This document shows positions 11,429 through 43,118 of a stretch of DNA of 64,000 bases, piece by piece; within the stretch, counting starts at the first letter, position 1; each line of letters begins with the position of its first letter. The notes beneath the pieces were generated by a model. It saw only the letters and a program-made list of their open reading frames with translations, did no database searches and was not told where the DNA came from. The DNA is taken from positions 2,186 to 66,185 of the forward strand of contig DETV01000048.1 in assembly GCA_002361775.1 (NCBI GenBank), read 5' to 3'. Made by a program: the position numbers and the translations under genes. Source of the stretch: Eubacterium sp. UBA3279. Its GTDB lineage: Bacteria; Bacillota; Clostridia; Lachnospirales; Lachnospiraceae.

Positions 11429-11441
11429 ATCGTCTGTCTTT

Positions 11442-11846
11442 TTATCGCTCCATATCTTTTGAAATTGGTTTATATGCTTTCGCTTCAATGCCCTTGTCCG
11501 TCTGATAAAAACGCTCCGGATACCGGAACTTATCCTCATACTTTTTCATCAAATCCTTTGGCATACTGAGAAAACTCTCCGACTCAATCGGTGCATATGC
11601 GATAAAGAATTTGCCTGCAATAATGTCGAGGATTTCTTTATCATCGGAGTAAATTGCACGATTTAACTCAGCACCATTTATCTTCCCTTCCTCGTTACAT
11701 ACGATTGCAACCTCATCATCAAAAGGCATATATTCCTCAATATATCCGCCTACGGTTTCCTGCATTGCTTCCAGCGTATCCTCAATCTCAATCTGTTTCG
11801 GATACTTGCCCGGTTCAATGAGAAGTACATTTATTTTTTCGCTCAT
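11442..11846 (-). CDS. DUF3846 domain protein
   Basis: VLLIEPGKYP...LEAMQETVGGYIE...VCNEEGKING..LNR signature. Confidence 0.75.
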   Translation of the reverse strand: MSEKINVLLIEPGKYPKQIEIEDTLEAMQETVGGYIEEYMPFDDEVAIVCNEEGKINGAELNRAIYSDDKEILDIIAGKFFIAYAPIESESFLSMPKDLMKKYEDKFRYPERFYQTDKGIEAKAYKPISKDMER

Positions 11847-12799
11847 CTCTCAAAACTCCTTTCATTCTTCTTGGAAATTCCTAATTTGATACACAAAAAG
11901 TCGTTGACATCTTTCCCGCACTTGGGCGGATCGTCAACGACTTCGTATCTGTCTTTTAATTTAATTTTCAGTGCATTTGCCGCCTTTCTTCCGGCAATAT
12001 CATTATCAAAATGAAGCACGATTCTGTTAATCTTCTTGTTCTTTTCAAGCAGATTTTTCAGTGTAACAGGCACTTTGGATTTCTCTGTTTCTCTGTTAGG
12101 CGAATACACGCCGGATAGGGAAACAAGGTTTAATTTGTGCCAATCCCTGCCCTCCATCTTTGCTAATGTGGCATAGGATAACAGGTCAATGGCACATTCA
12201 AACAGGTGTACCTCTGTGCTTTCTTCATTTGTCAGCCTGAAAGAAAACTGCTTCTTACTACCAGTGCAGTCGCCCATAATACGACTGCTGTTTGTTGCCC
12301 GAAATGCAGCATACTTTGCTTCTTTTTTCTCGTCATAACCGATAAAAACAACATTGTGATATGGCAGTGATTCAATGATAAGTTCCTTATCAAGACAGTA
12401 GTTTATGATTTCATAATCAATCCCTCTACTGAAAAGATACTGCGTAACCACATCGTTACTCGGACTTTTTTGCGGTAAAAGAAGTGGCTGATTTTCATAA
12501 CTCCGGCTTTCTTTTTCATAGACCAGAGCAGAAACAGCACACTGTCCCATAATGGTTTCAACCGCTTCAACAAAATCAAGTCCTTTGACTTTGATAAGAT
12601 AGTCAAGGGCAGATTTGCCGCCGATACCTCTCGACCACCACATCCATTTCCCATTTGAAATCTTCAAACTGTCGTGTTCTCTGGTGCAGTAGGTGTTACC
12701 GCTGTAACGGACAAGTTCGCTCGGTTCATAGGTGCGAAGATAGGTCAGCAAATCCATTCTCTTTGCTTCGGTTATGACTTCCGGTGCTATATATGGCAT
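11843..12799 (-). CDS. DUF3991/toprim primase-like protein
   Basis: EHDSLKI, LFECAIDLLSY, LHFDNDIAGRKA, KDVNDFL toprim motifs; start at ATG 12799 after GAGGTG. Confidence 0.8.
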   Translation of the reverse strand: MPYIAPEVITEAKRMDLLTYLRTYEPSELVRYSGNTYCTREHDSLKISNGKWMWWSRGIGGKSALDYLIKVKGLDFVEAVETIMGQCAVSALVYEKESRSYENQPLLLPQKSPSNDVVTQYLFSRGIDYEIINYCLDKELIIESLPYHNVVFIGYDEKKEAKYAAFRATNSSRIMGDCTGSKKQFSFRLTNEESTEVHLFECAIDLLSYATLAKMEGRDWHKLNLVSLSGVYSPNRETEKSKVPVTLKNLLEKNKKINRIVLHFDNDIAGRKAANALKIKLKDRYEVVDDPPKCGKDVNDFLCIKLGISKKNERSFER

Positions 12800-12822
12800 A
12801 TTGACCACCTCACATTTCATTC

Positions 12823-15800: not shown

Positions 15801-18800
15801 CTTTCGGCTGAACCTTTTCCAGTGCTTCCACATTGATTTTGTAATCTTCAGGATAAAGTTCAGCCGACTTCTTTGCTGTGATAAGTTTCTCCCTGACATT
15901 GCCTGAGAGGTACTCATCTGCCATCAAATACTTTGCCTCAGTTACATTCCCGTACCCGTAAAGCGGATTTAAGAAGATAACGCCTTTCAAATCCTGATAG
16001 AGCGTCTCCTCACTTTTACCTGTGAGTTTTGACATATACTCCATATCAATCTCGGCTTTTTCTCCCATAGAAACAGCAAGTGCTTCACTGGCGGTATCTA
16101 CCTTTTCTACCGGCTTATGTGGCTTAATTGTACGCTTGAAGAACATATCCGCCTTGCGTTCCAGTTCTCCGTTTTCGTTAATGACTTCAAGTGCAGAAAG
16201 CAAGGCAAAGGAACTGTCATCACTGAAAGCAGAGATATTTGCTCTGCTGTTAATCAGTCCGTATTTCTTTGTGTAACTGTCATAAAGACTGTTGAGTTTT
16301 GACTGTTCGGCTTTGATTTCTTCATCCGGATAGTCCTCCGTTTGCAGTTCAATCAGGTTGCGAACGCTGTCACGAACAGCAACCATACCCTTGATTCTGT
16401 TTTCTGCGGTTGCCGATACCTCAACCGGAGTCATACGGGAATTTTCACGGAAATAGATTTTATCATCCACAACCGTGTAAGAAAAATTTCTCACATTCGG
16501 GTCTGCCGGAATAGAATTGTCTTCTTCCTCAAGTTCAGCTTCTACTTCATAATCGTTGATTTCTCCGTGTATATTTGCTACCGCTTCCGATAATAATTCT
16601 GATAAATCGGCATTTTCAAACGGTATACAAGTTACTTCTTCTCCAAAGCGTCCACTTACTGTTTTCATCTCGCCCAGTATCATTTCGGGATGTTCCACAA
16701 AGTACGAGTTCATCGTGATACCGTCATCGGTTGTGCCAAGTTGTACCCAATTAGGCTCTATATCTATGAGCCTGTCTCGCTTTTGCAAAAACAAAATATC
16801 CGATACAACTTCTGTACCGGCATTGCCCTTGAATGTGTCATTCGGAAGTCTGATTGCTCCCAAAAGGTCGGCTCTTTGAGCGATATATTTTCTGACCGAC
16901 GAATTCATTTTATCCATCGTGCCTTTGCTTGTCACAAGTGCCATCACACCGCCGGGTCTTAACTTATCCAAAGCTTTCGCAAAAAAATAATCGTGAATAA
17001 GGAAGTTATACTTATCGTACCTCTTATCAAGTACCTTGAAATCGCCAAACGGAACATTTCCCACAACTCCGTCAAAGAAGCTGTCCGGCACATTGACTTC
17101 TTCAAATCCCTGTGCTGCTATGGATGATTTCTGATAAAGTTGCTGAGCAATCCCTGCCGAAACAGTATCAAGTTCCACACCGTAAATCTTTGTATTTTTC
17201 ATTGACTCCGGCAACATACCGATAAAATTACCGATGCCGCAGGACGGCTCTAACAGATTGCCCTCCTTAAATCCCATCTGCTCCATTGCCTTGTATATAG
17301 CGTCTGTAACTTCTGGAGGAGTATAAAAGGCAGTCAGTGTGCTTTCTCTTGCGGTGGCATATTCTTCGGGAGAGAGTGCGGTATATAACTCAACAAATTC
17401 ATCTGCCCACGCCGAATTGTTCTCATCAAAGGCTTCTGGCAAACCTCCCCAGCCGACATATTTTGACAAAATAAACTGTTCTTCAGGTGTGGCAAATCTG
17501 TTTTCAAACTCACATTCCTTCAGAACCTTTATGGCTTCCATATTCCTGCGAAAGCGTTCTTTCTTGCCTGCCGGCTCTACCGGATTGGAACGCAAATCAA
17601 AAGTATTTCTCTCTGCCATCGGAATATCCGGGTGCAAATCAAAACTCTTGACCTTGCTCGTTTTATTCTCCCACTGCGGTTTTATCGGTTCAGTCTCTTT
17701 ATCATAGCCATTGCCGATACGAATGCCCTCGTTATACATCTCATCGTAGCTGTCAAAGCCATTCTGATTTGCAATGATTTCTCGGTAGTCCTCAATAGGT
17801 ACTTTACCAATATTGGTTGCTACCATATCGCTTCTTTCGGTATTTTCAATGAGTGCTCCCATTGTATCAGTCGTACATTCTGTAAAATCCGGTGTCTGCC
17901 TGAAAGCTGTATCTGCTTCTTCAAACCATTCTGTACCTACATCGGCAAGGGTTTGATTTGCGACACTGCCGAGGTAATCAAAGAACTCATCTGCCGATTT
18001 ATAGTTCTGTGCAGCATTTCTGATTTCATCAAAAGAAAGCGTATTTGTAACATACTGACCGCCGGCACTACTGTCTGGATTAAAGTACATCCAAGTAACG
18101 CTTTCCTGCTCTCTGTTAATGAAAAACGCATCCTCATAATCTGTTTTCTGTTCGGTTTCGGTATCACTATGCGTGATATTTTCGTCTGTATCGGCTTTTT
18201 CTGCGGCAGGTAATACCGTTACCCTCAAGTGGTCATTCAGCGGATTTTCCTGCACTTTGCGGTCAAATTCTCCCCTTGAAAACTCCTTGTTGAACAGTGG
18301 CATTTCTGTATCGTAAAGCATTACTCTCTCATCATCAAAAGATAAGATTTCATACTCCGAAGCACCGATATATACCGTGTCTCCAAGATGATATTCATAT
18401 CGGGTATCAGGTAATTGCTGTTCCTGTGTTTGCTCTGCAAGCAGACTGCGGACATAATCAATCTTCTCTACACGGTTAATCGGGAAACCTACGCTGTCCT
18501 CAAAAGTGACATCTCGCATAGAAACATCGCCGCTTATTTTACCGATACTTTCAATAACAAATCGGCGGGCATCAATCACAATTTCCTTGCCGATAATATC
18601 GTCATCATTTGCCTGCTCTGCTTCTTTCGGTGGTGCAGTAGAAAGAATTTCCCGATTTCTTTTCTGCTCCTCGATTTCTGCCCGTCTTGCTTCCTGCTTC
18701 TCAAGCCACTGCGGATACTGCTCCTTTTCCTTTGGATTTAAGTATCTGTCTGCACGGATAAGCTCCCCGATACGCTTTTCCACCTGTGTCCATTTAAGAT

Positions 18801-20664
18801 TGAGTTTCGGTGCGTCGTTTCCAAATCCTCTTGAAAGAGTTATGCCTTTCCCATCGTGGTTTTCATCAATACCTGCACCGATAATGACAGGATATGAACC
18901 TCCCCAACCGTATTCGTTTTTGAGAAAGTCTGCATTTTCTTTTGAAGATAAACTCTTTTGAAACTGCTCATAGATACGCATTTTACCTTCGTAAATACCG
19001 CTTCCACGAGTCAGAACTGCGTCGATAATCTCCTGAGAAAAAGTAAAGGCAGAGGTTTTGTTTTCCTCTGCCTGACCGTCTAATATGAAGCTCATCTGTC
19101 CGTCTACCGACGGTAGCGGTTTCATTCTATCATTTAATTCTCCCAAAAGACGCATTGCTTCAAAGTGCTGTGCAATCACACTCCAATTATAGAAACTCTG
19201 TGCAGTTCTGCTGTCATAATGACCTTCCCAAAGATGCAAAACATTCTGAAATGTCTTGTAACCTACGGTTCTCCCATCCTCTAATGTGAGTTCGGTATAG
19301 TCGTTATTGAAGATACTCTTGATATATTCGGTACGGGTATCGCTATCGGTATTTCTCTCATAGAGGTCTTTAATATCTTCAAGAGAAGCCGATAAATGCG
19401 GTGTAGTACCGAGTATCTCTCGGATAGTATCATCCCCACCGAAAAACGGCAGGCTCTTATCCTCGTTGCTTCTGTCGTAATACTCTAAACGAATATTACC
19501 TGTGCTTTCACGATTTCCTGTGCCGAGTTCCTGATGTTGTTCATCAAGCGAATCCAATTCATCATATCGTCCGCTTTCATCTGCTCCGTCAGCCCCTCTT
19601 GCTGTGCCATCTGCCTGATAAGCGTTTCTTCCAGTTTGGTCGCCCTCTGCTGTACTTCTGACAGATGACTGCTCAGTATCCCTTTCGTCAGGAGATTGTA
19701 ATACTGAACCTTGTGGTGTTCTTTCAGATAAGTTCTCCTCATCTGCGACCATTTGCCCTGAATGACCTCCGGCTGTTCGGGCAGAGTCAGGTTCGGAAGA
19801 TTGTAATCCCCGACCATCGTGTATGTTATCTCGTTCATAATCGCTACTCCTTTCGTCTTTGATGTCTTTATTGTATTCCGGTTGCCTGTTTGCTTCAATT
19901 ATGCGATTTTGACGGTTCAGTGCCATCACTGTTTTTGAGATTTCCGAAAGTCCCATCTCTGCAATATCGCTTGTGGCAAATCCCAGAGCGTTCATCGTAT
20001 CCTGCGTATTGAAATTTGTAACATCTCGAAAATCATCTACTTCAAAGTATTCGCTGGTATCAATTCCAAGCCTTGTCATAATCATATATGCCACGCTGTT
20101 TGTGACAACCTTTTTATACAGACTTGCAATCATCGTTTCGTCAAGTCCTTCTAAGAAACTGTCCTCGGAAGCATATATGAGGTCATTAAGATAATCCGGC
20201 AAATTATCTTCGGCGGCATTTTGTGCGGCACTCATAACTGCTTCGCCCAAAGTGACTTTGTTATCCAGTTCTCCGAATGTGCTTTCAAGCGTTTCAATAA
20301 CATCGTCTGTGTATTCGTTCCTCATATTCCAAAGTGGAACAGGACGGGAATATCTGCTCTCGTGAGTATCGGAAATATCGAAGTAGTGGATAAGTCTTTG
20401 TCTTGCTCTGTTTTCATCGGCAAATACCGCAATACCTCTTGCCCCTCTATTTACCCAACGTCCAAAACTCCTGTTCCAACGCTCGATTTCAAGAACTGCC
20501 GTAGCGTCCGGTCGCTGTGCATATATAAGCAACTGCTCATCGTATCTTAGCTTATAATTCCTACACGCAGACTGCAAGAAATTCCGCCAGTTCTGCGGAT
20601 TGGAAACAACCGTCTTGCAGGTTCTGTCATAGAGTTCGGATATGAGTTCGTATTTTCTTGACAC
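12823..20664 (-). CDS. Giant ArdC-N / N6-adenine methyltransferase / SNF2 helicase fusion (DarB-like)
   Basis: LLEPSCGIGNF and GNVPF MTase motifs; AHAVGAGKT, FIDESH, ATGTPISNS, QRSGRIIRQGN helicase motifs; ArdC-like N-terminus. Confidence 0.88.
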   Translation of the reverse strand: MSRKYELISELYDRTCKTVVSNPQNWRNFLQSACRNYKLRYDEQLLIYAQRPDATAVLEIERWNRSFGRWVNRGARGIAVFADENRARQRLIHYFDISDTHESRYSRPVPLWNMRNEYTDDVIETLESTFGELDNKVTLGEAVMSAAQNAAEDNLPDYLNDLIYASEDSFLEGLDETMIASLYKKVVTNSVAYMIMTRLGIDTSEYFEVDDFRDVTNFNTQDTMNALGFATSDIAEMGLSEISKTVMALNRQNRIIEANRQPEYNKDIKDERSSDYERDNIHDGRGLQSSEPDSARTAGGHSGQMVADEENLSERTPQGSVLQSPDERDTEQSSVRSTAEGDQTGRNAYQADGTARGADGADESGRYDELDSLDEQHQELGTGNRESTGNIRLEYYDRSNEDKSLPFFGGDDTIREILGTTPHLSASLEDIKDLYERNTDSDTRTEYIKSIFNNDYTELTLEDGRTVGYKTFQNVLHLWEGHYDSRTAQSFYNWSVIAQHFEAMRLLGELNDRMKPLPSVDGQMSFILDGQAEENKTSAFTFSQEIIDAVLTRGSGIYEGKMRIYEQFQKSLSSKENADFLKNEYGWGGSYPVIIGAGIDENHDGKGITLSRGFGNDAPKLNLKWTQVEKRIGELIRADRYLNPKEKEQYPQWLEKQEARRAEIEEQKRNREILSTAPPKEAEQANDDDIIGKEIVIDARRFVIESIGKISGDVSMRDVTFEDSVGFPINRVEKIDYVRSLLAEQTQEQQLPDTRYEYHLGDTVYIGASEYEILSFDDERVMLYDTEMPLFNKEFSRGEFDRKVQENPLNDHLRVTVLPAAEKADTDENITHSDTETEQKTDYEDAFFINREQESVTWMYFNPDSSAGGQYVTNTLSFDEIRNAAQNYKSADEFFDYLGSVANQTLADVGTEWFEEADTAFRQTPDFTECTTDTMGALIENTERSDMVATNIGKVPIEDYREIIANQNGFDSYDEMYNEGIRIGNGYDKETEPIKPQWENKTSKVKSFDLHPDIPMAERNTFDLRSNPVEPAGKKERFRRNMEAIKVLKECEFENRFATPEEQFILSKYVGWGGLPEAFDENNSAWADEFVELYTALSPEEYATARESTLTAFYTPPEVTDAIYKAMEQMGFKEGNLLEPSCGIGNFIGMLPESMKNTKIYGVELDTVSAGIAQQLYQKSSIAAQGFEEVNVPDSFFDGVVGNVPFGDFKVLDKRYDKYNFLIHDYFFAKALDKLRPGGVMALVTSKGTMDKMNSSVRKYIAQRADLLGAIRLPNDTFKGNAGTEVVSDILFLQKRDRLIDIEPNWVQLGTTDDGITMNSYFVEHPEMILGEMKTVSGRFGEEVTCIPFENADLSELLSEAVANIHGEINDYEVEAELEEEDNSIPADPNVRNFSYTVVDDKIYFRENSRMTPVEVSATAENRIKGMVAVRDSVRNLIELQTEDYPDEEIKAEQSKLNSLYDSYTKKYGLINSRANISAFSDDSSFALLSALEVINENGELERKADMFFKRTIKPHKPVEKVDTASEALAVSMGEKAEIDMEYMSKLTGKSEETLYQDLKGVIFLNPLYGYGNVTEAKYLMADEYLSGNVREKLITAKKSAELYPEDYKINVEALEKVQPKDLTASEISVRLGATWLPQEIIQQFMFEFLDTPRYAQWNIKVHFSPYTGEWNIEGKSYDRSNVKAYSTYGTGRINAYKIIEETLNLKDVRIFDYIEDDEGRKKAVLNKKETAIAQAKQELIKQGFQDWIWADPDRREKLKKMYNEKFNSIRPREYDGSHITFSGMNPEITLREHQRNAVAHILYGGNTLLAHAVGAGKTFEMVAASQESKRLGLCNKSLFVVPNHLTEQWAAEYLQLYPSANILVATKKDFETKNRKKFCGRIATGDYDAVIIGHSQFEKIPMSIERQRAILEQQLNELTEGIAELKRNRGENFSVKQLEKSRKSVKQKLQKLNDQSRKDDVVTFEELGVDRLFIDESHYYKNLYLYTKMRNVGGIAQTEAQKSSDLFMKCRYLDEITGGRGTVFATGTPISNSMVELYTIQRYLQYNTLVKNGLQHFDAWASTFGETVTAIELTPEGTGYRAKTRFAKFYNLPELMAMFKEVADIKTADMLNLPVPEAEYHNVSVEPSEMQKEMVASLAERAEKVRGGGVDSSVDNMLKITNDGRKLALDQRMLNDMLPDFENSKINACVDNVYRIWEENKDKKSAQLVFCDLSTPKNDGTFSVYNDIRKKLIERGVPESEVRFIHEAETDVKKKELFQKVRKGEVRVLMGSTQKMGAGTNVQDRLIALHDVDCPWRPADLEQRSGRIIRQGNSNPKVEIYRYVTKQTFDAYLYQLVEGKQKFASQIMTSKSPVRSAEDIDETALSYAEIKMLATGNPYIKEKMDLDIQVQKLKLLKSNFLSEKYSLEDKIIKYYPQRITSLENRINGLTADVKTAKQHPKPTDDRFVGMEVKGVFYSEKADAGKAIIEACKEMTSPAPIPLGKYRGFETELSFDTTERSYCVTVKGETGKQVSLGDDVFGNITRIDNAVERFADDLEKAKDSLADTKNQFETAQKEVQKPFVQEEELKSKLARLDELNILLNMDKKENEIVGGEPDEGESTEKRKEKSYER
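19485..19838 (-). CDS. TnpV family protein, nested in alternative frame of the giant helicase gene
   Basis: GAAAGGAG RBS 8 nt before ATG; MNEITYTMVGDYNLPNLTLPE..GKW..MRRTYLKEHH..YYNLL..G.L..HL..EQMKADDMMNWIRLMNNIRNSAQEIV is the TnpV pattern. Confidence 0.8.
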   Translation of the reverse strand: MNEITYTMVGDYNLPNLTLPEQPEVIQGKWSQMRRTYLKEHHKVQYYNLLTKGILSSHLSEVQQRATKLEETLIRQMAQQEGLTEQMKADDMMNWIRLMNNIRNSAQEIVKAQVIFV

Positions 20665-20679
20665 TGCTTTTGCACCTCC

Positions 20680-20961
20680 TTATCGTTCTTTTTCTTTGCT
20701 TTTTGTCGGTTTTGTCTTTTCCTTTCCGGCTGGTTCAACGGTATGACCGTTTCTTTCACACAGCTCTGCAAATTCACAGATATGAAAAACATCCGAACCG
20801 ATTTGTGTATGATAATCGTCGATATACTTACACTCACGCTCCAGTGTTGTTCCGTTTCTTGTGTGAATCAGGATTTTATCTCCGTCATTTACACGAAATT
20901 TCTCGTTGTATCCACTGTCAATAAAGCGGATACTGTTTTCCTTATGTTCCTGACTGCTCAT
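20680..20961 (-). CDS. Small ICE hypothetical protein
   Basis: GGAGGTG RBS; IRFIDSGYN...CKYIDDYH..IG...FHICEFAE module typical of Clostridiales ICE proteins. Confidence 0.7.
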   Translation of the reverse strand: MSSQEHKENSIRFIDSGYNEKFRVNDGDKILIHTRNGTTLERECKYIDDYHTQIGSDVFHICEFAELCERNGHTVEPAGKEKTKPTKSKEKER

Positions 20962-21169
20962 CCGTTCCACCTCCCAAATATGAGAACAACTTGTTGGCTT
21001 TGGTTTCTTTCTGAAGTTCGATGATGAGTGCCATATCCGGTATCGTAATACCCGGAATCTTCAAAATACTCTCCATATCAAGTTGTTGTAATTTCTTTTC
21101 CGTATTACAACCGGAATCAAACAGCTTCGCCATTAATTTTGTTTTCTGTTGAAATGTCGGTTTGCTCAT
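20942..21169 (-). CDS. Hypothetical protein
   Basis: GGAGG RBS, overlaps next gene. Confidence 0.65.
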   Translation of the reverse strand: MSKPTFQQKTKLMAKLFDSGCNTEKKLQQLDMESILKIPGITIPDMALIIELQKETKANKLFSYLGGGTDEQSGT

Positions 21170-21181
21170 CTTGCGTCCTCC

Positions 21182-21472
21182 TTATTCAATTTCTATGACT
21201 ACACGAATACTGCTGTCGCAGCCACTGCACTGTCTGGAAAGTTCCGGGAACAAAGATTGCACCCTCTGTCTTGACCTGCGGATAGTTTCAAAGCACGGTA
21301 AACCGTAGCCCTTGTAGTTGTTGACTATATCCTCAAGAGATAAGTCGCCGACTTTCAAATAACTGTATCGGTTGTAATAGCAGAGGATAAGCTGCATATC
21401 GTCATACCTTGTTTCAGGGCATTCTCTGAGGATTGCAAGCACCTTGCTGTCAACCGTTCTCTGCTTATTCAT
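21182..21472 (-). CDS. Hypothetical protein, possible helical DNA-binding fold
   Basis: GGAGGTG RBS before ATG 21472; VLAILRECPETRYDD...ETIRRSRQRVQ. Confidence 0.6.
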   Translation of the reverse strand: MNKQRTVDSKVLAILRECPETRYDDMQLILCYYNRYSYLKVGDLSLEDIVNNYKGYGLPCFETIRRSRQRVQSLFPELSRQCSGCDSSIRVVIEIE

Positions 21473-21485
21473 AAAGCACCTCCAT

Positions 21486-21519
21486 AAAGTAAATGGACGG
21501 AGTTTTTTCGCTCCGCCCA
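21486..21519 (-). terminator. Intra-operon intrinsic terminator-like hairpin
   Basis: Minus TGGGCGGAG-CGAAAAAA-CTCCGTCCA then TTTACTTT. Confidence 0.6.
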
Positions 21520-21531
21520 CCATTTTGTTTC

Positions 21532-21621
21532 TTATTTCTTTCTGTTTTTAATCTGTAAAAAGATAAAGCCGCCGATAATAAAGGCGACCAAAACAACTGC
21601 TACGATTGTCTTTGCGTCCAT
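21532..21621 (-). CDS. 29-aa single-TM peptide
   Basis: MDAKTIVAVVLVAFIIGGFIFLQIKNRKK; TAATG overlap with adhesin stop, AAGGAGG upstream. Confidence 0.6.
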   Translation of the reverse strand: MDAKTIVAVVLVAFIIGGFIFLQIKNRKK

Positions 21622-24600
21622 TATTCATTGCCCTCCTTTTTCTTCTTTCTCTTGGAAGCAACAACCGTTGCAACGATACCGAGTGCAGAAGCACCTGCAA
21701 GTGCTACCCAAAGACTGGTCTTTCTGTCATCGCCGGTTTTCGGTGTATCACGAAGTTTATTGTACATCTCGATTTCTACCGTTTCGCCGACCTTTACAGT
21801 CACTTTCTTATCGGCAGGTAAAATATATCCAGCAGATACATTGTCGCTGACCTCGGACACTGTGTATTCGCCGATACGAAGCCCATCTACGGAGATTTCG
21901 CCATTCTTATCGGTTGTAAAGGTGCTGTCATAACCGTTGACACCTGTTACTCTGAAAGTGAAGCCTTCCACCTTACCGTCGGAAGATGTCTTTTTAATTT
22001 TCAGGTTTCCTTTCATTGCTTCGTTGATAAAGCCGACTCCCGCTTTGTTTTCTACCTTGTAGGTAGTTTCATCTTTTTCAATGAATACGGAGTAAACGCC
22101 CTTATCAAGCACAAAGCCCTCCGGTGCTTTGGTTTCTCGTACAAGATATTTACCGTAGAGAAGTTCTTTCATCTCATAGATACCGGTTGCGGTTTCTTCA
22201 AGATTTCCGATAAGTTCATCGCCATCGTCCAGTTTACCGTCGCCATTAACATCCTTATATACTTCAAAAGTTGCACCCGTCAGTTTGTTATCTGGATAAT
22301 CAGCATCCACTTTGGTAAGTTCAATATTACCGTGAATATACTCGTCGGTAATTTCCACTTCGATGACCTGCTCATTCTCCCCGATGTTTACTTCGTAGGA
22401 AGTATCATCAAGCACAAAGCCTTCTGGAGCTTCGATTTCTCTTACAATCCACTTTCCATAAGGAACTTTTGCAAAAGAAAAACTGCCGTCCTTTTCAGAT
22501 GTGGCAGTCATAATAGCGTGTTCTTTTGTAAATTCGGTTTCATCTGCTTTGAAAATGCCGATTAAAGCACCGCCCAGTGCTTCTCCGTTCTCGTCAATCT
22601 TCTTACCGGATACAGAACCGTAAATAAGTTTGTTTTCAATCGGCTTACCGTCATTTACCTTGATTTCAACCGTTTCGGTATCCTGCCCGGCATACTCGAA
22701 TGTGAACGGATACTGTGTGTCGGAGAGAATATAATGCTCATCTGTGGCAATTTCCTTGATATAGTAACTGCCAAACGGAAGGTCTGTATTTGCAGTCGCT
22801 GCTCCGTTTTCATCAAGCGTGATAATCTCAATCAATCCGTCAGCCGGAATAACTGTGCCGCTTGAAGATACAACATCTTCTTTTGCATAAAGACCGAAGC
22901 TGATGTTTTTGATTTCATCGTTCTTGCCGATACCAAAGGTTTCATTCTGTTCTAAGATTTTTTCAAGAGAAATCTTCACTTTCTGTCGCTCGTTTACGAA
23001 GCTGGTTGCAGTTTCAGTTACCGCTACATCCTGTCCGGCATAAGTGAGTTCCACCGAATGCTTTTCTTTGTTGATGACCATACCTGTCGGTGCTTTGGTT
23101 TCTACTACCGTATATTTACCGAGATAGAGTTCCTTACTCTTAGCTGTTCCGTCCTCATCGGTTGTTACAGTATCTACTACATCGCCCTTGTGATAACGAA
23201 GTGTACCATCCGGTGTGATAACATCTTCATCGGCTGTGATTTCATAAACCGCACCTGCAAGTCCTTTGACTTTATACACCGGCTGATAAATCACATCTTT
23301 ATCTTCCTCGCCGGATACATTGACACCAAAGAATACTTCGCCGGTTTTCTCAACGGAAATCGTACCTTTCTGTGCCATATTCGGCTTATCCACCCTAATC
23401 AATGTGATACCACCTTCCTGTGTGGAATTTTCTTCTGTTACATCAAAGGAAACAGGTGTGCTGTCGAGTACATATCCATACGGAGCCTGAACCTCAACAA
23501 GAGAATATCCCTTGCCATAGTCCAATTTTTCAGGTGTAACAAGCTGACCGTCTGCATCAGTATAGAATGTGTCAATGGTTGTCGGTGTCGGATAAGTAAA
23601 TGTCATACTTACCTTGTTGCCGTCAGGGTCATAAATCTGGAAGCCTGCACCTGCATATGGAATCGTCTTGCCTGTTTCAACATCTTTCTTTACCACCTTG
23701 ATATATGACTCAAAGTTGGCATTGTTGATGAGATAACGGTAGGTCTGTCCGTCCTGAGAAATGAAAACATCAAAGTCTTTCATAAACTCACGACCTTCCC
23801 AACCTTTGGTCTGATGAACGGTATATACGCCGTATGGCATATCCTTTGTCTGAGCAAATCCGTTTTCATCGCAAACTATGGTATCTCTTTCATCCTTGTC
23901 GGCTTTTTCAAATGAGCCGGAAGATTTCAGATACACTTCAAATTCAGCACCGTTTTCCGGTGTCTCAATCTTGGTTTCCCCATCATCGGTGTGTTTGATG
24001 ATAGCAATATTTCCTTTCATAACCTGCTCTGTCACGTCGTTTGCCACAAGATTGTGTTCAATCGTAAAGAGTTTTGGCTCTGCACCTACCTTGTGGATTG
24101 TCTTATCAAGGAGATAACCCTCACTCGGTGTGATTTCTCTGATTGTCCAATCACTGTCGCAGACATATTCCTTAGTTGTGAACTGTCCGTCGCTGTCTGT
24201 CACATACTTATCCACAAGTGTGTCGCCTTTATAAATTCCGTAAACAGCACCGGAGAGTTTTGCGTCGCCCTGAGCAGTGCCTTCTTCTCGGTCGCTCTTT
24301 GTTACAGTTACGCTGAACTTCTTCAAGATATTTGTGAAATCACGGTTTGTAACCCCTTTCCACTGAATCGGTGCAGTCTGTTTTTCGGGAACGACATAGC
24401 GGATTGCTGTATCCACTTCTTCGAGCGTATATGGTGTGCTTCCGCTGATAAGAACATCTTTGAATGTTGCAACACCGTTTTTATCGGTAACTGCATATTC
24501 ATCAACTGCAATGCCTGCAAGGGAAGTACCGTAAAGGTGGAATTTCATACCCTCAACAAGATTATCTTCCGATGATTTAATGACCTGAAGATTACCTCTC

Positions 24601-25871
24601 TTGAGAACATTGTTGAAGTTTACGGTTGCCACCTGACCGGCTACAACAGTTACTCTGTGAACTTCCTGCGGTACATATTTGTCAATAGACTGTTCTGTTA
24701 CGGTATATACACCGGGCATAAGGTTGTCAAGCTGGAACTTACCGCCGTTTGCTGTGGTAACTGTCTGATTTACTCCGTTACCTGAAATAGTGAAATTGAT
24801 ACCGTCAACCTTTCCGTCCTCAGATGTTTTCACAATCTGACAAGAACCATAGCTGACTTTCATCTTCACATATCCGGTTACAGGGTCGCTGACTTCCTGT
24901 GCGTAAGTAACAACATCCTGCACGCTTGAATTTTGACTGTGCTTACCCTCAGACCATACGACAACACCTCTGCGGACACCGTTTTTCTTACTTGCGGTAA
25001 TAGTAAATTCCTTACTCGGTGCTTTATCCATTGACACCGTAAGTTTGTTTCCGTTTGTAGAAAATGTTACACCACTGATACTCGCCTTAAAATTATAATT
25101 GGCAAGTACACCGTTTGAGTCTGTAAGGGTTGCAACATATTTGCTTCCGTTCCATTCAAGCTCTTTTACTTTTGCAGAACCGCTTGATTTAGTACAGAAG
25201 CTCGGCACAACTGTGTGATTCTGCACACTGCTGACCATACTGTTGTAGTAACTCATAATCTTACTGCGAAGCGGATGTTTGGCATTGATAACATCTTTTA
25301 CATTACTGCAACCACTGGCTGCTTTGTGATTAAAGTTTGCGTCACGCTCACCTACGACAGTTTCCCAAATAAGAAGCTGTGTTGCATAAGCGTGAGCAAT
25401 ACTGTTTGCCGCACTTTCGTTCTGCGACCTCCAGCTTGTTGAAATCGTTCCTCGATAGCCGTACTGCAAGATACGACCGATAAAGAGTCTGATTTCATCG
25501 CCGGAGATAACTCCGTTTGCTGTGATATTGTTAAAATAATTTTCATCGTATTTGTTCATACTCTGACCTGAGCTAAGTGAAACACCCGGCTCGATACAAT
25601 AGGCAATATTACCGGAATATGAACCGATTGCCTTTAAGTTGGTATGGGTGGAACTGCCGGTATGCCAACCGTTCTTCAAAGTAAGGTTACTGTGTCCCCA
25701 CACACCGTCGTAATTTGCGTCGCCGTCACGAGGGAAATCAACCATATACACTTTGGTCTTTTCTCCGCTTGCGGCAAACGCTGTGCTTGTCCCAATACTC
25801 ATAAATGCACTGAGACTGAGAACCGTCACCATAACAAACGATACGGCTCTCTTGATTTTCGACTTTGCCAT
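21621..25871 (-). CDS. Sortase-anchored adhesin with thioester (TED) domain and SpaA/CnaB-type repeats
   Basis: Signal peptide; AYCIEPG and ATQLLIWE TED motifs; repeated G.Y.V.E..AP.GY domains; TPKTGD + TM + basic tail. Confidence 0.88.
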   Translation of the reverse strand: MAKSKIKRAVSFVMVTVLSLSAFMSIGTSTAFAASGEKTKVYMVDFPRDGDANYDGVWGHSNLTLKNGWHTGSSTHTNLKAIGSYSGNIAYCIEPGVSLSSGQSMNKYDENYFNNITANGVISGDEIRLFIGRILQYGYRGTISTSWRSQNESAANSIAHAYATQLLIWETVVGERDANFNHKAASGCSNVKDVINAKHPLRSKIMSYYNSMVSSVQNHTVVPSFCTKSSGSAKVKELEWNGSKYVATLTDSNGVLANYNFKASISGVTFSTNGNKLTVSMDKAPSKEFTITASKKNGVRRGVVVWSEGKHSQNSSVQDVVTYAQEVSDPVTGYVKMKVSYGSCQIVKTSEDGKVDGINFTISGNGVNQTVTTANGGKFQLDNLMPGVYTVTEQSIDKYVPQEVHRVTVVAGQVATVNFNNVLKRGNLQVIKSSEDNLVEGMKFHLYGTSLAGIAVDEYAVTDKNGVATFKDVLISGSTPYTLEEVDTAIRYVVPEKQTAPIQWKGVTNRDFTNILKKFSVTVTKSDREEGTAQGDAKLSGAVYGIYKGDTLVDKYVTDSDGQFTTKEYVCDSDWTIREITPSEGYLLDKTIHKVGAEPKLFTIEHNLVANDVTEQVMKGNIAIIKHTDDGETKIETPENGAEFEVYLKSSGSFEKADKDERDTIVCDENGFAQTKDMPYGVYTVHQTKGWEGREFMKDFDVFISQDGQTYRYLINNANFESYIKVVKKDVETGKTIPYAGAGFQIYDPDGNKVSMTFTYPTPTTIDTFYTDADGQLVTPEKLDYGKGYSLVEVQAPYGYVLDSTPVSFDVTEENSTQEGGITLIRVDKPNMAQKGTISVEKTGEVFFGVNVSGEEDKDVIYQPVYKVKGLAGAVYEITADEDVITPDGTLRYHKGDVVDTVTTDEDGTAKSKELYLGKYTVVETKAPTGMVINKEKHSVELTYAGQDVAVTETATSFVNERQKVKISLEKILEQNETFGIGKNDEIKNISFGLYAKEDVVSSSGTVIPADGLIEIITLDENGAATANTDLPFGSYYIKEIATDEHYILSDTQYPFTFEYAGQDTETVEIKVNDGKPIENKLIYGSVSGKKIDENGEALGGALIGIFKADETEFTKEHAIMTATSEKDGSFSFAKVPYGKWIVREIEAPEGFVLDDTSYEVNIGENEQVIEVEITDEYIHGNIELTKVDADYPDNKLTGATFEVYKDVNGDGKLDDGDELIGNLEETATGIYEMKELLYGKYLVRETKAPEGFVLDKGVYSVFIEKDETTYKVENKAGVGFINEAMKGNLKIKKTSSDGKVEGFTFRVTGVNGYDSTFTTDKNGEISVDGLRIGEYTVSEVSDNVSAGYILPADKKVTVKVGETVEIEMYNKLRDTPKTGDDRKTSLWVALAGASALGIVATVVASKRKKKKEGNE

Positions 25872-25887
25872 CTAATTTTCCTCCTTA

Positions 25888-25921
25888 AAATGAAAGAACG
25901 CACCGATTATCTCAGTGCGTC
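25888..25921 (-). terminator. Intra-operon intrinsic terminator-like hairpin
   Basis: Minus GACGCACTGA-GATAA-TCGGTGCGTT then CTTTCATTTT. Confidence 0.6.
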
Positions 25922-25945
25922 CGATACTGTATTTTATTTTGTTTT

Positions 25946-26626
25946 TTAGCAGTAGCCGATATAGATTTCATATTCCGTATCGGATACCTTTTCTGCCCAT
26001 ACCCATACTGCGGTAAATCCTTCCACATTTTTGTATCTGTTCAGCCTGCTTTGAATATCGTCCTTAATGCCTGTGCGTTTGGCATTGGCAGTGATAGGAT
26101 TATCCCAACAATCCGTAGCAGTACTGTCCAACTCCAAACCGATACTTTGAGCATAATTCTTAGCATAACTCACATAAGGATTAACATCAAAGCTCGGCTT
26201 TACTTCTTCCGTCGGTTTTGACTGCGTGGGTTTCACTTCTTCCTTAACCGTCGGTGTTTCCGGCTTTGACTGCGGTTGTTGCTGTGGCTGCTCCTGTTCT
26301 TGAATACTGTCAGGCTTTTTCGTTACTTGAACGGATTCATAGCTTTTTGCAGTTTCCGCCCTACTACCTGCCGTAGAAGAAACACCCGACTTTTCCTGCT
26401 GATTCGGCTCTGTTGCTGCTTCACTTGATACCGGTTGCTCCGTCTCGGGAACATCACTTGTATCATCTGCTTTTTCTGTTTCGGTCGTTGTTTCGGTATT
26501 ACCTGCCGTAGAAGAAATCCTTTTATCCGTGTCATTTCGTGCGGTTTCTTTGGCTGTGTTACCGTTACATCCAGCAAGCAAAATCATCAAGCAGGCAATC
26601 ATACAAACCATCCATTTCTTTTTCAT
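25946..26626 (-). CDS. Lipoprotein of unknown function
   Basis: Lipobox LLAGC, low-complexity T/E/Q/P linker, compact C-terminal domain. Confidence 0.8.
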   Translation of the reverse strand: MKKKWMVCMIACLMILLAGCNGNTAKETARNDTDKRISSTAGNTETTTETEKADDTSDVPETEQPVSSEAATEPNQQEKSGVSSTAGSRAETAKSYESVQVTKKPDSIQEQEQPQQQPQSKPETPTVKEEVKPTQSKPTEEVKPSFDVNPYVSYAKNYAQSIGLELDSTATDCWDNPITANAKRTGIKDDIQSRLNRYKNVEGFTAVWVWAEKVSDTEYEIYIGYC

Positions 26627-26866
26627 AAGCTATCATTCCTTTCGCCTTAATCGTAATCAATCGGGCGAAAAACAGCAAAGGTGCGAATATCCAAACTTTT
26701 AATCGTATCAGACATTTTATTTGCACTTCAAATGTGCGAACCCTTTATTAGACAGCTATAAGTTATGAGAGATAGTTATATTCAAGTGAGATAGAATATA
26801 TATTTTCAGCACGTAAACAGTAGGTATTAGGGGGTAGAGTGTGAGAAGGGGGAGTAACAAAATCGG

Positions 26867-27799
26867 CTATCTGCTGTCACGGTCTGCCCGTTGCCTGAGA
26901 TACTTGTTATAATGCTCCAATGCCTTGCACACGAAATCCTCCGTTTGGCTGATTGGAATATTCTTCGGGATGAGTTGTCGCACTCTGTCTCCCCTTAACA
27001 CAATCTTCTCTTTCTGGTTCGGCTTTTCCTCCGACATAATGGCTTGGATAGCTTCAGTTGTGAGTTTGCCCTCATCGAAAAACTTACGCATACGAATAGT
27101 CTGGTCGTGAGAGGGAGTTGCGTCGTTCATATCAATCTCGTCAACTACATCACGCTGACAATCTTCGTCAAGATACGAAAGCTCCACCGCCGGTCGCATT
27201 TTAATTCGCCCCTCATCAACAAATTCAAGCAGTTCGGGAACAAGGTTTGTAAGGCGAACATAACGCTGGATTTGCGTTTTACTATCAGCAGAATTTTCTG
27301 CAATTTGTTCCACCGAGAACTTCTGACCCACTGGGGCAGAAGTTAAATCAGAACGAAATCCTTGCCTTTTCATAGCGTCCAAACGCATTTTGTAGGCATA
27401 GGCTTTTTCAGAGGGAAGTATCTGTGACCTTTGGAAATTACTTTCCACCATTAGAATTGTGGCTTCATCTCTATTAAGGTCAACAACCTCACATCTTAGC
27501 GTTTCAAAACCGGCAAGTTCGCTTGCTCGTTTTCGTCTGTGACCGGATACGAGTTCATATCTTCCGTCCTCTTTCTGCCTTACCGTTGCCGGAGTAATCA
27601 CTCCACGCTCCTTGATACTCTCGACAAGCTGTTGCATATCTTCATCGTCCCTGACCTTGAACGGGTGATCTGGGAAATCGTCAATCAGCTCTAATGGAAT
27701 ATCTCGGATTTTAGAAAGTCTTTCTTCCTCTCTCTGTGCCTGCGTTGTAAAAAGGTCATCGAGTCTCGTGAGAGTGAAGTCGCTCTTTCTTCCTGCCAT
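26867..27799 (-). CDS. parB: ParB/RepB/Spo0J partition protein
   Basis: FPDHPFKV, YELVSGHRRKRA arginine patch, HTH region. Confidence 0.9.
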   Translation of the reverse strand: MAGRKSDFTLTRLDDLFTTQAQREEERLSKIRDIPLELIDDFPDHPFKVRDDEDMQQLVESIKERGVITPATVRQKEDGRYELVSGHRRKRASELAGFETLRCEVVDLNRDEATILMVESNFQRSQILPSEKAYAYKMRLDAMKRQGFRSDLTSAPVGQKFSVEQIAENSADSKTQIQRYVRLTNLVPELLEFVDEGRIKMRPAVELSYLDEDCQRDVVDEIDMNDATPSHDQTIRMRKFFDEGKLTTEAIQAIMSEEKPNQKEKIVLRGDRVRQLIPKNIPISQTEDFVCKALEHYNKYLRQRADRDSR

Positions 27800-28580
27800 C
27801 GGCTAACACCTCCTTCGTAAATTCGGTGTATGCCTTTGACACCGTACTGTTTGGCTCATAAGCAAAAATGCTCTTTCCTTTGGAAGAAGTTTCTGCGGCT
27901 TTTACAGCAATCGGAATAGATGTGCGATACAGCTTAATCTGATTTCCGAAATTCTCCCGCAATGCTTCCACCGTACTTTTGGCGAGGTTTGTGCGGTTAT
28001 CCACCAAAGTGAGAAGCATACCGTCTATCTTAATGTCCTGATTGATATACTTCTTGACTTTTGAAATGGTCTGCACAAGCTGGGTCATACCCTTAGCCGG
28101 CAAATACTGTGCCTGCACCGGAACAATCACGCTGTCTGCCGCAGATAGAGCATTAAGTGTTACCATACTCAGTGAGGGCATACAGTCAATCAGAACAAAA
28201 TCATATCTGTCTTTGACCTGACTTAAATAATTCCTCAAAGTGGTTTCTCTGCTCATAGCGTTCATCAGGTTATATTCCATCGCCGAAAGTTCAAGGTTTG
28301 CCGGTAAAAGGTCAACGCCTTCCTCGTGGTGTAGAATACCGTCTGTCGGGTCATTCATCGTTTCACTAATCACATCTGTAAGTTTCGTTGCAAGCGTGAT
28401 ACCCAAATTGTCTGTATCTCTCCAACCGAGACAGGTGGTTAAATCTCCCTGTGGGTCTGCGTCAATGAGCAAGACTTTCTTACCCTGCATTGCAAGCCCA
28501 ACACCAAGATTAACCGTTGTCGTTGTCTTTCCGACTCCGCCTTTTTGATTGCATATGGCAATCGTTTTGCAGTTTGACAC
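27756..28580 (-). CDS. parA: ParA/Soj ATPase
   Basis: NQKGGVGKTTT deviant Walker A, IDADPQG, LIDCMPSL. Confidence 0.92.
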   Translation of the reverse strand: MSNCKTIAICNQKGGVGKTTTTVNLGVGLAMQGKKVLLIDADPQGDLTTCLGWRDTDNLGITLATKLTDVISETMNDPTDGILHHEEGVDLLPANLELSAMEYNLMNAMSRETTLRNYLSQVKDRYDFVLIDCMPSLSMVTLNALSAADSVIVPVQAQYLPAKGMTQLVQTISKVKKYINQDIKIDGMLLTLVDNRTNLAKSTVEALRENFGNQIKLYRTSIPIAVKAAETSSKGKSIFAYEPNSTVSKAYTEFTKEVLADGRKKERLHSHETR

Positions 28581-28599
28581 TTCTTGCCTCCTCCTTTCA

Positions 28600-28955
28600 A
28601 TTTATTCATAGCCAATAAAAACGGCTATGTACTTGACCGTTTCATTTCCTAAACGGTCGTGGCAATATTTATTCTCAATATCCCTTGCCAAGCATATCGC
28701 TTTCGGGAAGTCGTTAAGGAACAGGCTGCTTATCTGTATCATAGGAATCTAACCTCTGCCGGGTACTCCGCCAGCTCCGTAGAGAAGTATCATTATCTTT
28801 CTGACCGTCATCGCCATATCGGTTGCAATCCGATACTCATAGCAGGAGTTCTCGCTGTTCTGAAATTTCAGAAGTTTCGGCGTACCTACTAAAGTGGCTA
28901 TCATCAGAATTAAAGTCTTAACGACCTGTGTATTCAGTTGTCAAAGAACAAGTGA
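28600..28955 (-). ncRNA. Candidate structured 5' leader RNA of the parA-to-transfer operon
   Basis: Stems at 28607-29, 28635-58, 28660-90, 28817-35, 28858-73; long-range 28710-18/28917-25; G-U extensions favour the minus strand. Confidence 0.45.
28932..28951 (-). promoter_or_regulatory. boxA-like antitermination element
   Basis: Minus TTGTTCTTTGACAACTGAAT resembles rrn boxA (E. coli TGCTCTTTAACAA; Firmicutes GTTCTTTGAAAAC). Confidence 0.55.
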
Positions 28956-28986
28956 AAAGGCTTCCGTTTTCATTATCAGGAATTAA

Positions 28987-29026
28987 CCCCTTCACTCATT
29001 GCACAAAAGGCTTCATTTTGGACACC
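28987..29026 (-). promoter_or_regulatory. Candidate alternative-sigma promoter
   Basis: Minus GGTGTCC...GTGAAGGGG preceded by A/T tracts, directly downstream of a terminator; inference only. Confidence 0.3.
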
Positions 29027-29073
29027 CAAAATCGCTTCTTTTCCGAAAAAAATTTCAAAAAATTTTTGACAAC

Positions 29074-29110
29074 AAAAAAAGCCGCCTGTTTCGGTTAAAA
29101 AACAGACGGC
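29074..29110 (-). terminator. Intrinsic terminator
   Basis: GCCGTCTGTTT-loop-AAACAGGCGGC then T7. Confidence 0.85.
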
Positions 29111-29124: not shown

Positions 29125-29298
29125 TTATTTGATTTTCAGTTTCTTTTTCCTTGCGGACAGCACTTTCAGAAGAACTTCATCTACTGCGTCGGTGTATCTT
29201 CCTTGTACTATGAGGTTGTTTTTCAGATTGATAAGCGACTGTATCACTCTGCTTTGCTCATCATCGGTTAGATAAATGTGATATTTCTTTTCTCTCAT
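29125..29298 (-). CDS. Small conserved ICE protein (57 aa), paralogue of 7599..7802
   Basis: MREKKYHIYLTDDEQSRVIQSLINLKNNLIVQGRYTDAVDEVLLKVLSARKKKLKIK; GGAGG RBS, ATGA overlap; missed by ORF track. Confidence 0.75.
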   Translation of the reverse strand: MREKKYHIYLTDDEQSRVIQSLINLKNNLIVQGRYTDAVDEVLLKVLSARKKKLKIK

Positions 29299-41630: not shown

Positions 41631-43118
41631 TTATAAAGAAGGTACATCTGTCCTCTTTGGATCCAGAATCTGTGTTGCATCAAATAAATCACTGGTTCTG
41701 TTCTTTTCTCCATGCACATCATTCCACAGGCGATATCCATCCAGATTTCTTCTTCCCTGTCTCACATAATTGTCCCGTATCTGAAGGAAATACTGGGTGG
41801 AATCCACATTACAGTAGAAATGGTATCCCTGTCCTTTCAGGTACTGGAATTTTTCATTATCTCCACTATAATCATGCCAGTCGGATAAATCCTGACCATG
41901 GGCAAAAATAATTGTATCGGTAGCTCCCACCAGAGGTTCTACATAGCTTTTCCACTTGTCTGTATCTGTCTGGATTCTCTCTAAAGAAGCATCTCCGATT
42001 CGGATATGTCCCCATGTATGGCTGGCAAATTCCCAACCATCCGCTTTGATGGCTTCAGCAACTTTTTTTGCTTCCTCACACTCCGTATCCCAATTAAAAT
42101 CAGGATGAGCATCCAGCCATGCCTGCTGATCTGCTGTCAGATTTTCTTTCGTTTTATAGGCAATATCTGTACGATATCCCAAAATGCCGTTGTATCCGGT
42201 CAATGCGATCATTCCTTTTGCTCCTTTATAAGAAGCATCCGGATGTTCTGCAATAAACTGATCCAGTAATGGTACGCAGTCATATGCTCCCGTCACTGTT
42301 GTTCCATCTGCCTGCACATATTCACAGGTTGGTTTTCCATTTTCATCCAGAACAACTTTGCTGGCAATTCCTCTTCCATCATAGCTGTGATAATAACTGA
42401 GGTCATCCAGAGACATGACAAAAGCCTTTTTCCCCTGTGGAAGCTTCAGTTCTGTATTTGGTGTAAAATGCACTGTTCCATCTTCATCTGTTATCTGAAT
42501 AACCAGATCTCTAAGACGTACCAGCACATATCCGTTATCATACATGGCCTGGGTAATCTTATTGAATTCGTCCACTGTTGTCATCCACTGCTTAAATCCT
42601 GCAGATAAACTGTCGTCTCCGGCAAATCCCCGATCAGGATCCACCACCAGAGAGTGGTAGAAAATATGTGTGACTTCATTCATATTCACCGGCACGCAAC
42701 TGTCTTTTGCCGCCTGATATTCTGCCACCTTCGCTGCAATCTCCGAATCTTCCGCTGCTCCCTCCAGACTGTTTAATTTTTCAATTGCCCCATCATAATC
42801 ATAAGTGGCTGCCAGATACGCCGCTTCTTCCATAGCTGCTGTTCTATCCGTTCCCGGCTGTGCTGCCGTATCCTCCGCCGGCTCTGTCTCCTCTTCCGGC
42901 GCTGCTTCCGGTGTCACTTCCGGCGTTACCTCTGTCTGAATATCTTCTTTTTTATCAGATGACTGTGATTCCTGATCTTTTTTCAGAGTGCGTACCAGGA
43001 AAAACACACAGACTCCCAACACCACCAGCAAAAGCACCAGAACCACTGTCTTAATCATCAGGGTACGTTTTTTCTTTTTTTGTTTTAACTCTTTTTTACT
43101 GAGAGATTCCTTACCCAT
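41631..43118 (-). CDS. Membrane-anchored polysaccharide deacetylase family protein
   Basis: N-terminal TM, HIFYHSL, MSLDD, SHTWGH. Confidence 0.8.
   Translation of the reverse strand: MGKESLSKKELKQKKKKRTLMIKTVVLVLLLVVLGVCVFFLVRTLKKDQESQSSDKKEDIQTEVTPEVTPEAAPEEETEPAEDTAAQPGTDRTAAMEEAAYLAATYDYDGAIEKLNSLEGAAEDSEIAAKVAEYQAAKDSCVPVNMNEVTHIFYHSLVVDPDRGFAGDDSLSAGFKQWMTTVDEFNKITQAMYDNGYVLVRLRDLVIQITDEDGTVHFTPNTELKLPQGKKAFVMSLDDLSYYHSYDGRGIASKVVLDENGKPTCEYVQADGTTVTGAYDCVPLLDQFIAEHPDASYKGAKGMIALTGYNGILGYRTDIAYKTKENLTADQQAWLDAHPDFNWDTECEEAKKVAEAIKADGWEFASHTWGHIRIGDASLERIQTDTDKWKSYVEPLVGATDTIIFAHGQDLSDWHDYSGDNEKFQYLKGQGYHFYCNVDSTQYFLQIRDNYVRQGRRNLDGYRLWNDVHGEKNRTSDLFDATQILDPKRTDVPSL

Follow-up and report, generated by a model that had tools for sequence, protein, structure and literature searches.

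The locus and its conjugation operon

The window, which is the whole stretch of 64,000 nucleotides analysed here, originates from Eubacterium sp. UBA3279, whose assembly is a metagenome-assembled genome (MAG) of 113 contigs and 2.94 Mb that lacks a 16S gene. [quoted passage not shown] This gene is followed by parB, a gene for a thioester/SpaA adhesin of 1416 amino acids, a gene for a SNF2/Eco57I-methylase protein of 2613 amino acids, a DUF3991-Toprim primase, NikA/MobC, a MobA/VirD2 relaxase, VirD4, PrgI, a VirB4-type ATPase, DUF6075 and a sortase. Since the transfer genes extend on the same strand from parA through the sortase to the edge of the window, the conjugation operon of more than 28 kb that a preliminary description of this DNA had proposed is real. 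Terminator-like sites are in weak excess inside the operon (25 compared to 17±4 in shuffled sequences), and one of them is convincing. The best candidate (25896..25922) is located in the gap before the gene of the 1416-aa adhesin.

Between parA (28580..27756) and a strong intrinsic terminator (29110..29081) lies a non-coding gap of 500 nt, and it is in this gap that the minus strand reads TTGTTCTTTGACAACTGAAT (20 bases, 28951..28932). A conserved ORF of 56 amino acids (MREKKYHIYLTDDEQ..., 29125-29295) stands directly before the terminator and the leader, and the same placement is seen in one or more distant relatives (L071). The ORF gave no hit in Pfam, and a regulator of leader transcription is one possible role for it.

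Table 1 Features of the leader and of the conjugation operon in the window (all on the minus strand)
Feature	Position	Strand	Basis
Small ORF upstream of the terminator	29295..29125	-	
Intrinsic terminator ending the upstream unit	29081..29110	-	12-bp stem and T-run; kept in most homologous ICEs
A/T-rich spacer, then GGGTGTCC	29025..29078	-	Pattern kept among relatives
Hairpin AGUGAAGGGG...(inner stem UUCC/GGAA)...CCUUUUCACU	28951..28996	-	MFE fold
boxA core UGUUCUUUGACAA	28938..28950	-	rrn-only matrix, family consensus, RNAalifold
CUGAAUA extension	28931..28937	-	Also in Clostridia rrn boxA regions (CUGAACA / CUGCAUA)
Multi-helix domain, closing helix UUCUGAU/GUCAGAA	28799..28909	-	RNAalifold covariation
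pemK motif RF02913, single-stranded AUAAUGAUACUUC then three hairpins	28739..28796	-	Rfam
Distal leader helices	28659..28738	-	RNA contig boundary, fold
Two hairpins (GACCG..CGGUC; CAUAGCC..GGCUAUG at 28629..28607) and parA ribosome-binding site	28581..28658	-	
parA ribosome-binding site GAAAGGAGG	28598..28590	-	
parA, GTG start, AAA_31/CbiA	28580..27756	-	Pfam
Best internal intrinsic-terminator candidate	25896..25922	-	11-bp stem, 6 GC pairs, T-rich tail
Conjugation operon, presumed under leader control	1..28580	-	Pfam hits, all on one strand

Architecture of the leader RNA

The motif had been described as lying just 5′ of a structured leader, and a multi-helix leader supported by covariation indeed follows it immediately. 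A consensus fold was calculated with RNAalifold from 29 non-redundant leaders; compensatory changes occur at 35 of its 57 pairs, the boxA-like stretch is unpaired, and no complementary partner for the motif is predicted within the leader. In the MFE fold the hairpin at 28951..28996 abuts boxA without any gap, a position resembling that of boxB. Its inner stem shows compensating changes among the relatives; for the outer stem 71 % of the cells in a MAFFT alignment are paired, a value that a control slid by +1 reaches equally well.

The multi-helix domain downstream of boxA (28799..28909) comprises the conserved blocks ACGCC..GAC, AGCGAGAA, a hairpin with a GGAUUGC loop and GGCGAUGAC. It is followed by the pemK motif, whose Rfam model RF02913 is matched over its full length (1-61) with 67.1 bits at a gathering score of 34.8, and the spacing between boxA and the pemK core amounts to 148 nt.

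Two further pairings in the neighbourhood of the motif were noticed. AAGGGG (28992..28987) can pair with CCUUUU either upstream (29010..29005) or downstream (28960..28955), and in other members of the family the upstream AAGGGG pairing is followed by a U-run, resembling an intrinsic terminator 10-20 nt before boxA, which may be an attenuator gating the entry to the antiterminator. In addition, CCUUUUC right before boxA (28954-28960) is complementary to the parA ribosome-binding site GAAAGGAGG (28590-28598); RNAalifold pairs the corresponding columns 103-106 and 571-574 with little covariation.

The motif in comparison to rRNA operons

As the assembly is devoid of a 16S gene, the rrn leaders of the host itself are unreadable, and a genome of the same genus together with the genomes of ICE hosts served as stand-ins. 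The complete genome of the same genus possesses six rrn operons with the boxA TGATCTTTGATAACTGAACA in the leader and TGTACCTTGAAAACTGCATA in the spacer, with which the window motif agrees at 17 and 16 of 20 positions, respectively. Counts of patterns were less decisive: GTTCTTTGA[AC]AAC has a single occurrence in the 2.94-Mb host assembly, and a degenerate 14-mer has four matches genome-wide against 1.3 expected, one of them within a dCTP deaminase gene (at about 58230 of the window). For this reason a weight matrix was adopted. It was built from rrn boxA only, namely 27 leader and spacer sites of 19 Bacillota genomes (the same-genus genome, hosts of homologous ICEs and ten further pemK-carrying Bacillota genomes). 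With this matrix the window motif reaches 25.1 bits, which is rank 1 among 5,873,004 positions of the host assembly and falls within the range of the true rrn sites (19.2-31.1 bits); an earlier matrix of 13 rrn sites had placed it second of 5.87 million positions. The GACAAC variant is also present in genuine rrn spacers, and the core, this variant included, is common to rrn sites in ICE hosts and in other Bacillota.

Judged by its sequence the window motif, as RNA GUUCUUUGACAACUGAAUA (19 nt), is an rrn-type boxA beyond a chance match, in agreement with the preliminary description, and the comparison with rrn boxA that had been proposed there, carried out on same-genus and ICE-host genomes, shows that it fits the rrn consensus of the clade. 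NusB (contig C58, 122 bits) and Rho (contig C23) are encoded by the host; S10, NusG and NusA are universal.

Expression of the leader and start of transcription

Metatranscriptome contigs from four runs cover the leader region and place the motif within an abundant RNA species of about 325 nt (28983..28659). In three runs of one study they span 28659..28978/28983 with depths of about 490×, 500× and 40× compared to about 6×, 14× and 4× for parA contigs of the same runs, whereby the contigs are strandless and the depth sums up close variants. A run from pig gut contributed a contig 28659..28966 with an adapter joined at 28659. The 3′ boundary 28659/28660 recurs in four runs (X5, X6, X9 and X20; adapter-joined in X20), and in X6 a contig of the parA mRNA has an adapter-joined 5′ end at 28608, within the CAUAGCC..GGCUAUG hairpin. 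One contig of an RNA library (X1) extends up to 29102. The ends of the RNA contigs coincide with variable stretches, and the boundaries 28983, 28659 and 28608 may represent processing sites or breaks of the assembly graph rather than a transcription start; 28659 and 28608 could be sites of processing or termination between leader and parA.

A candidate promoter about 35 nt upstream of the motif, which the preliminary description had included, found no support. Its GATAAT (28977..28972) reads GATGAT in relatives with 99 % identical parA, differs in other relatives as well and sits in the loop of the hairpin 28951..28996, and the RNA contigs reach upstream of the start predicted from it. A scan from the terminator to the hairpin yielded no match to the sigma-70 consensus; the promoter is presumed to be located in 29025..29078 or further upstream.

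The motif itself contains a perfect TTGACA hexamer and could in principle act as DNA, namely as the −35 box of a sigma-A promoter with a start about 35 nt downstream, an alternative for which a check had been proposed along with the motif. A −10-like hexamer at a distance of 16-18 nt is found in none of 37 unique family members (TAAGAC in the window), TTGAAA is commoner than TTGACA, and two loci read CTTAAA (L049) and TTTAAA (L061). Conservation reaches well beyond the hexamer, the promoter scan was negative at the motif, and the motif, together with 27 nt or more of upstream sequence, is contained in abundant RNA contigs. The missing −10 partners and the RNA over the motif largely refute a −35 box, which is left with hardly any probability, and the outcome favours boxA.

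The RNA data also bear on a role in maturation. A motif mimicking the rrn leader or spacer could be a signal for RNase III or another maturation enzyme, or one partner of a stem, and thus set free the RNA of about 325 nt. The rrn spacer boxA region does pair with the 3′ flank of 23S, a complement of a spacer boxA adjoins a tRNA at the end of contig C111 of the host, and the leader accumulates as a discrete and abundant species with the fixed 3′ boundary 28659. Against this, the motif has no complementary partner in the leader and the 5′ boundary of the RNA (about 28983) is upstream of the motif and not at it, so that a processing signal is regarded as quite improbable.

Conservation among homologous ICE leaders

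A search with ParA led to 80 loci in Lachnospiraceae, Oscillospiraceae, Christensenellaceae and others, with parA identities down to 72 %. Near-identical ICEs with 99 % parA identity are carried, for example, by Blautia glucerasea MSK.18.94 and Ruminococcus intestinalis NSJ-71. The core TTGAMAAYTGAATA, written as TTGA[AC]AA[CT]TGAATA with at most two mismatches, is kept in 75 of these 80 ICE leaders about 360-380 nt before parA, which answers the question of motif conservation raised in the preliminary description; in the other five the locus is truncated or the upstream region differs. Within the ICE sub-family of the window the 3′ half and the CTGAATA extension are nearly invariant and the 5′ half drifts. 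Its variants are GTATTTTGACAAC (23 loci, 13.6 bits) and TTCGCTTGAAAAT (L010 group, 7.6 bits), to be read against a background in which the 99th percentile of the best match per 650 nt is 7.0 bits. Other ICE relatives score 20-31 bits and match the rrn sites in quality (best 30.9 bits). A blastn search against a plasmid collection gave two matches, both unannotated.

Loci of the L005/L010 type, a subgroup whose leader boxA is the most degenerate one, have a second boxA-like string AGAAATTGAAAATTGAATA (10.6 bits) about 561 nt before parA, which falls in the final codons of the small ORF that precedes the terminator.

boxA in the wider pemK family

To our knowledge the function of RF02913 pemK is given as unknown. 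The model comprises only the 61-nt core and is listed as cis-regulatory (Weinberg et al. 2017, PMC5737381), and the motif is absent from the main-text discussion of that paper. Among 401 evenly drawn Bacillota genomes 42 pemK matches were found in 32 genomes, and of the 41 loci outside the host genome 40, independent of each other, were analysed. The exact 9-mer C[CT]TTGA[ACT]AA is present on the sense strand 130-250 nt upstream of pemK in 35 of the 40 loci (88 %) compared to 1.1 % of random 270-nt windows, and the 12-mer GnnC[CT]TTGA[ACT]AA in the same interval and orientation in 34 of 40 compared to 0.18 %. On the antisense strand as well as within or downstream of pemK the 9-mer was found in none of the 40 loci. 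The pemK family extends about 150-250 nt upstream of the modelled core, up to boxA, and boxA, at its set spacing to the core, is strongly selected throughout the family.

The consensus of 36 unique sites is U-G-n-U/A-C-Y-U-U-G-A-A/C-A-A; C, UU and AA are invariant in all 36, and G is present in 35. Because 12 of its 13 positions agree with the E. coli boxA, UGCUCUUUAACAA, the family consensus can be equated at these positions with the classical boxA on sequence grounds, and the rrn sites in the genomes concerned show the identical consensus. YUGAAUA directly follows boxA in most members of the family. In some of them (e.g., L116) a hairpin is inserted between the boxA core and YUGAAUA, so that the two are separate modules. 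A comparison of the boxA variant of the canT/pemK RNAs (CCUUG/CUUUG) with that of the host rrn gave no clear pattern in a small sample of 12 genomes, ten of them with rrn sites.

These counts leave little room for a DNA site of an element protein (a regulator, ParB or a relaxosome factor) or for a chance resemblance. The location of the motif upstream of parA-parB and the inverted repeats in the region would suit such a site; the genes that follow the motif, however, vary greatly among family members (xis/int in Tn916 and parA in the window), and the motif is always in sense orientation, with a set spacing to an RNA motif. Likewise, chance would account for 1.1 % per window and 88 % was observed. 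Either reading is very unlikely.

Relation to canT of Tn916

The conjugation-associated antitermination RNA of Tn916, canT, was shown experimentally to be a cis-acting, orientation-specific and processive antiterminator that needs no other gene of the element (Wirachman & Grossman, PLoS Genet 2024, PMC11658703). A fragment of 452 bp, nt 126 to 577 after orf8, is fully active, and canT is inactivated by the mutation canT(S3), in which ATA at nt 283 past the stop codon of orf8 is replaced by TGC (PMC11658703). The authors favour a direct contact to RNA polymerase; neither boxA, pemK nor Nus factors as cofactors are named, and sequence analysis was stated not to have been pursued (PMC11658703).

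Tn916 was read here in the copy on pCF10 (Tn925, L104). Its gap between orf8 and xis contains ccaTTGTTCTTTGAAAACTGAATAaaag and, 157 nt downstream, gtGATAATGATACTCCCATAC. Thus canT possesses the boxA-like TTGTTCTTTGAAAACTGAATA at the same relative position as the window, with ccaTTGTTCTTTGAAAACTGAATA 157 nt ahead of the pemK core, and a pemK match of 55 bits (pCF10/Tn925 41922..41822). The bases changed in canT(S3) are positions 1-3 of the pemK model, exactly where the pemK match of canT starts. Between boxA and pemK the blocks ACGCC.UGAC, GAGCGA, a hairpin and GCC.UGAC can be aligned among the window, Tn916 and other members. The orphan Rfam motif pemK is the core of Tn916 canT, a link that is absent from the canT paper, and a function can hereby be assigned to it.

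Both RNAs have pemK (67 bits in the window and 55 in canT) as well as boxA and CUGAAUA about 150 nt upstream of the core. The shared pemK core, boxA and intervening blocks place the leader of the window in the canT/pemK RNA family, of which Tn916 canT is the member with demonstrated antitermination activity. The genetic surroundings are different. In the window the leader directly precedes parA and the conjugation genes of another ICE family (MOBP-type relaxase, VirD4, VirB4 and the giant SNF2 protein), whereas canT occupies the orf8-xis gap and reaches the conjugation genes of Tn916 only across the circle junction.

A putative Nus-dependent antitermination switch

The interpretation we prefer, with a probability of roughly 55 %, is that the 20-mer serves as boxA module in a canT/pemK leader of about 420 nt and recruits the host NusB-S10 for antitermination. 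In the nascent leader the single-stranded boxA would be bound by NusB-S10 (NusE) of the host, which together with NusG and NusA would tether the leader to RNA polymerase. The adjacent folded pemK domain would then keep the polymerase resistant to terminators and to Rho, and an enzyme modified in this manner could cross the long untranslated leader and the terminators inside the >28-kb operon. Such a leader would in effect be an RNA-only analogue of the lambda nut site, consisting of boxA and a structured partner. Of the Nus-dependent switch put forward in the preliminary description, the part that stands is a conserved boxA of the rrn type at the head of a structured canT/pemK leader; its promoter found no support, and neither did the view that antitermination is undescribed for such elements, canT of Tn916 and conAn of pLS20 having been published.

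In classical rrn antitermination Rho is the main target and intrinsic terminators are overcome only weakly, and boxA may for this reason be an auxiliary element. Its contribution may lie in long-range processivity, in protection against Rho or in co-transcriptional folding, or the element may function independently of Nus factors.

The last possibility is the main competitor. The motif would be functional in a canT-type RNA through a tertiary contact within the folded RNA or a direct contact to RNA polymerase as in the put RNA of HK022, and its likeness to rrn boxA would be due to shared ancestry or convergence, the factors not being shared. This would conform to the direct polymerase contact favoured for canT, which requires no proteins of the element (PMC11658703). 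Furthermore, the active 452-bp fragment starts on the pCF10 sequence at TTGAAAACTGAATA, inside boxA, and omits UGUUCU, the first six bases of the motif; since it starts within boxA, an intact boxA or its 5′ half is not needed for read-through of nearby intrinsic terminators in the B. subtilis reporter. Also the ICE family of the window keeps best the 3′ half and CUGAAUA, not the 5′ half which contacts NusB. On the other hand, this 5′ half is conserved family-wide (G 35/36, C 36/36), one of 13 consensus positions departs from the classical boxA, the rrn sites in the genomes concerned show the identical consensus, and an unrelated function would demand the coincidental copy of a known protein-binding site; for a tertiary contact no complementary partner is predicted. 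A Nus-independent role is therefore considered doubtful, though it deserves far more weight than the promoter, processing and DNA-site readings.

For NusB-S10 recruitment a more far-reaching version can be formulated, in which all pemK/canT RNAs of mobile elements in Bacillota would be RNA-only nut sites, boxA loading NusB-S10/NusG and the fold of about 250 nt replacing lambda N. This generalization is tentative and is given slightly less than an even chance.

Comparison with other antitermination systems

Known uses of boxA comprise rrn operons, lambda nut sites and some phage early regions, and among the non-rrn sites also the E. coli suhB leader and CRISPR leaders. The rrn system (boxB-boxA-boxC with NusB-S10, NusG, NusA and, in E. 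coli, SuhB) resembles the leader of the window in a boxA of the same range, a hairpin directly 5′ of it and a long untranslated structured RNA behind it. Unlike in rrn operons, the boxA of the window is located on a mobile element, is followed by protein-coding genes and is coupled to a pemK-type domain, which rrn leaders do not have; binding of Nus factors to it is putative. The lambda nut site (boxA, boxB and N) likewise places a host boxA beside a structured RNA on a mobile element, at the start of a long unit containing terminators. However, an N-like protein is not evident, the structured partner has about 250 nt instead of a 15-nt hairpin and canT works without proteins of the element, and the analogy to nut is a functional one only.

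Antitermination in conjugative elements (canT; conAn, PMC8191782) is already known, and boxA/Nus antitermination is classical. [quoted passage not shown] In the window a gene resembling ConAn1 is not evident between the leader and parA. In the literature searched, no paper came up that connects boxA or the pemK motif to canT, Tn916 or ICE leaders.

Processive antitermination decides on the expression of the transfer genes of conjugative elements, including the Tn916-type carriers of antibiotic resistance. For canT, identified by genetics in 2024, the nearly universal rrn-type boxA in canT/pemK RNAs provides a concrete cofactor hypothesis, NusB-S10, that can be tested in the B. subtilis/Tn916 system. 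It would extend the uses of boxA to Gram-positive conjugative elements and suggests that mobile elements borrow the Nus factors of their host to transcribe long transfer operons. If true, the pemK motif, the Tn916 antiterminator and rRNA-operon antitermination would belong to one mechanism across the conjugative elements of Bacillota.

Further boxA-like sites in the host genome

The boxA complement of the spacer type which adjoins a tRNA at the end of contig C111 is probably the 3′ flank of the processing stem of an rrn operon that is absent from the MAG. Two other sites have no pemK match. One of them, GTAACTTGTAAATTGCACA, is found at the end of contig C93 (L103) right before a TnpV-like ORF. 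The other, GCACATTGAAAATTAAATG, is located on contig C82 at about 14493 (L102, about 1994) between a divergent XRE repressor and xis with a frameshifted integrase. It lies about 130 nt past a strong TTGACA-17-TATAAT promoter with flanking inverted repeats and may represent a different boxA-led leader of a Tn916-like remnant.
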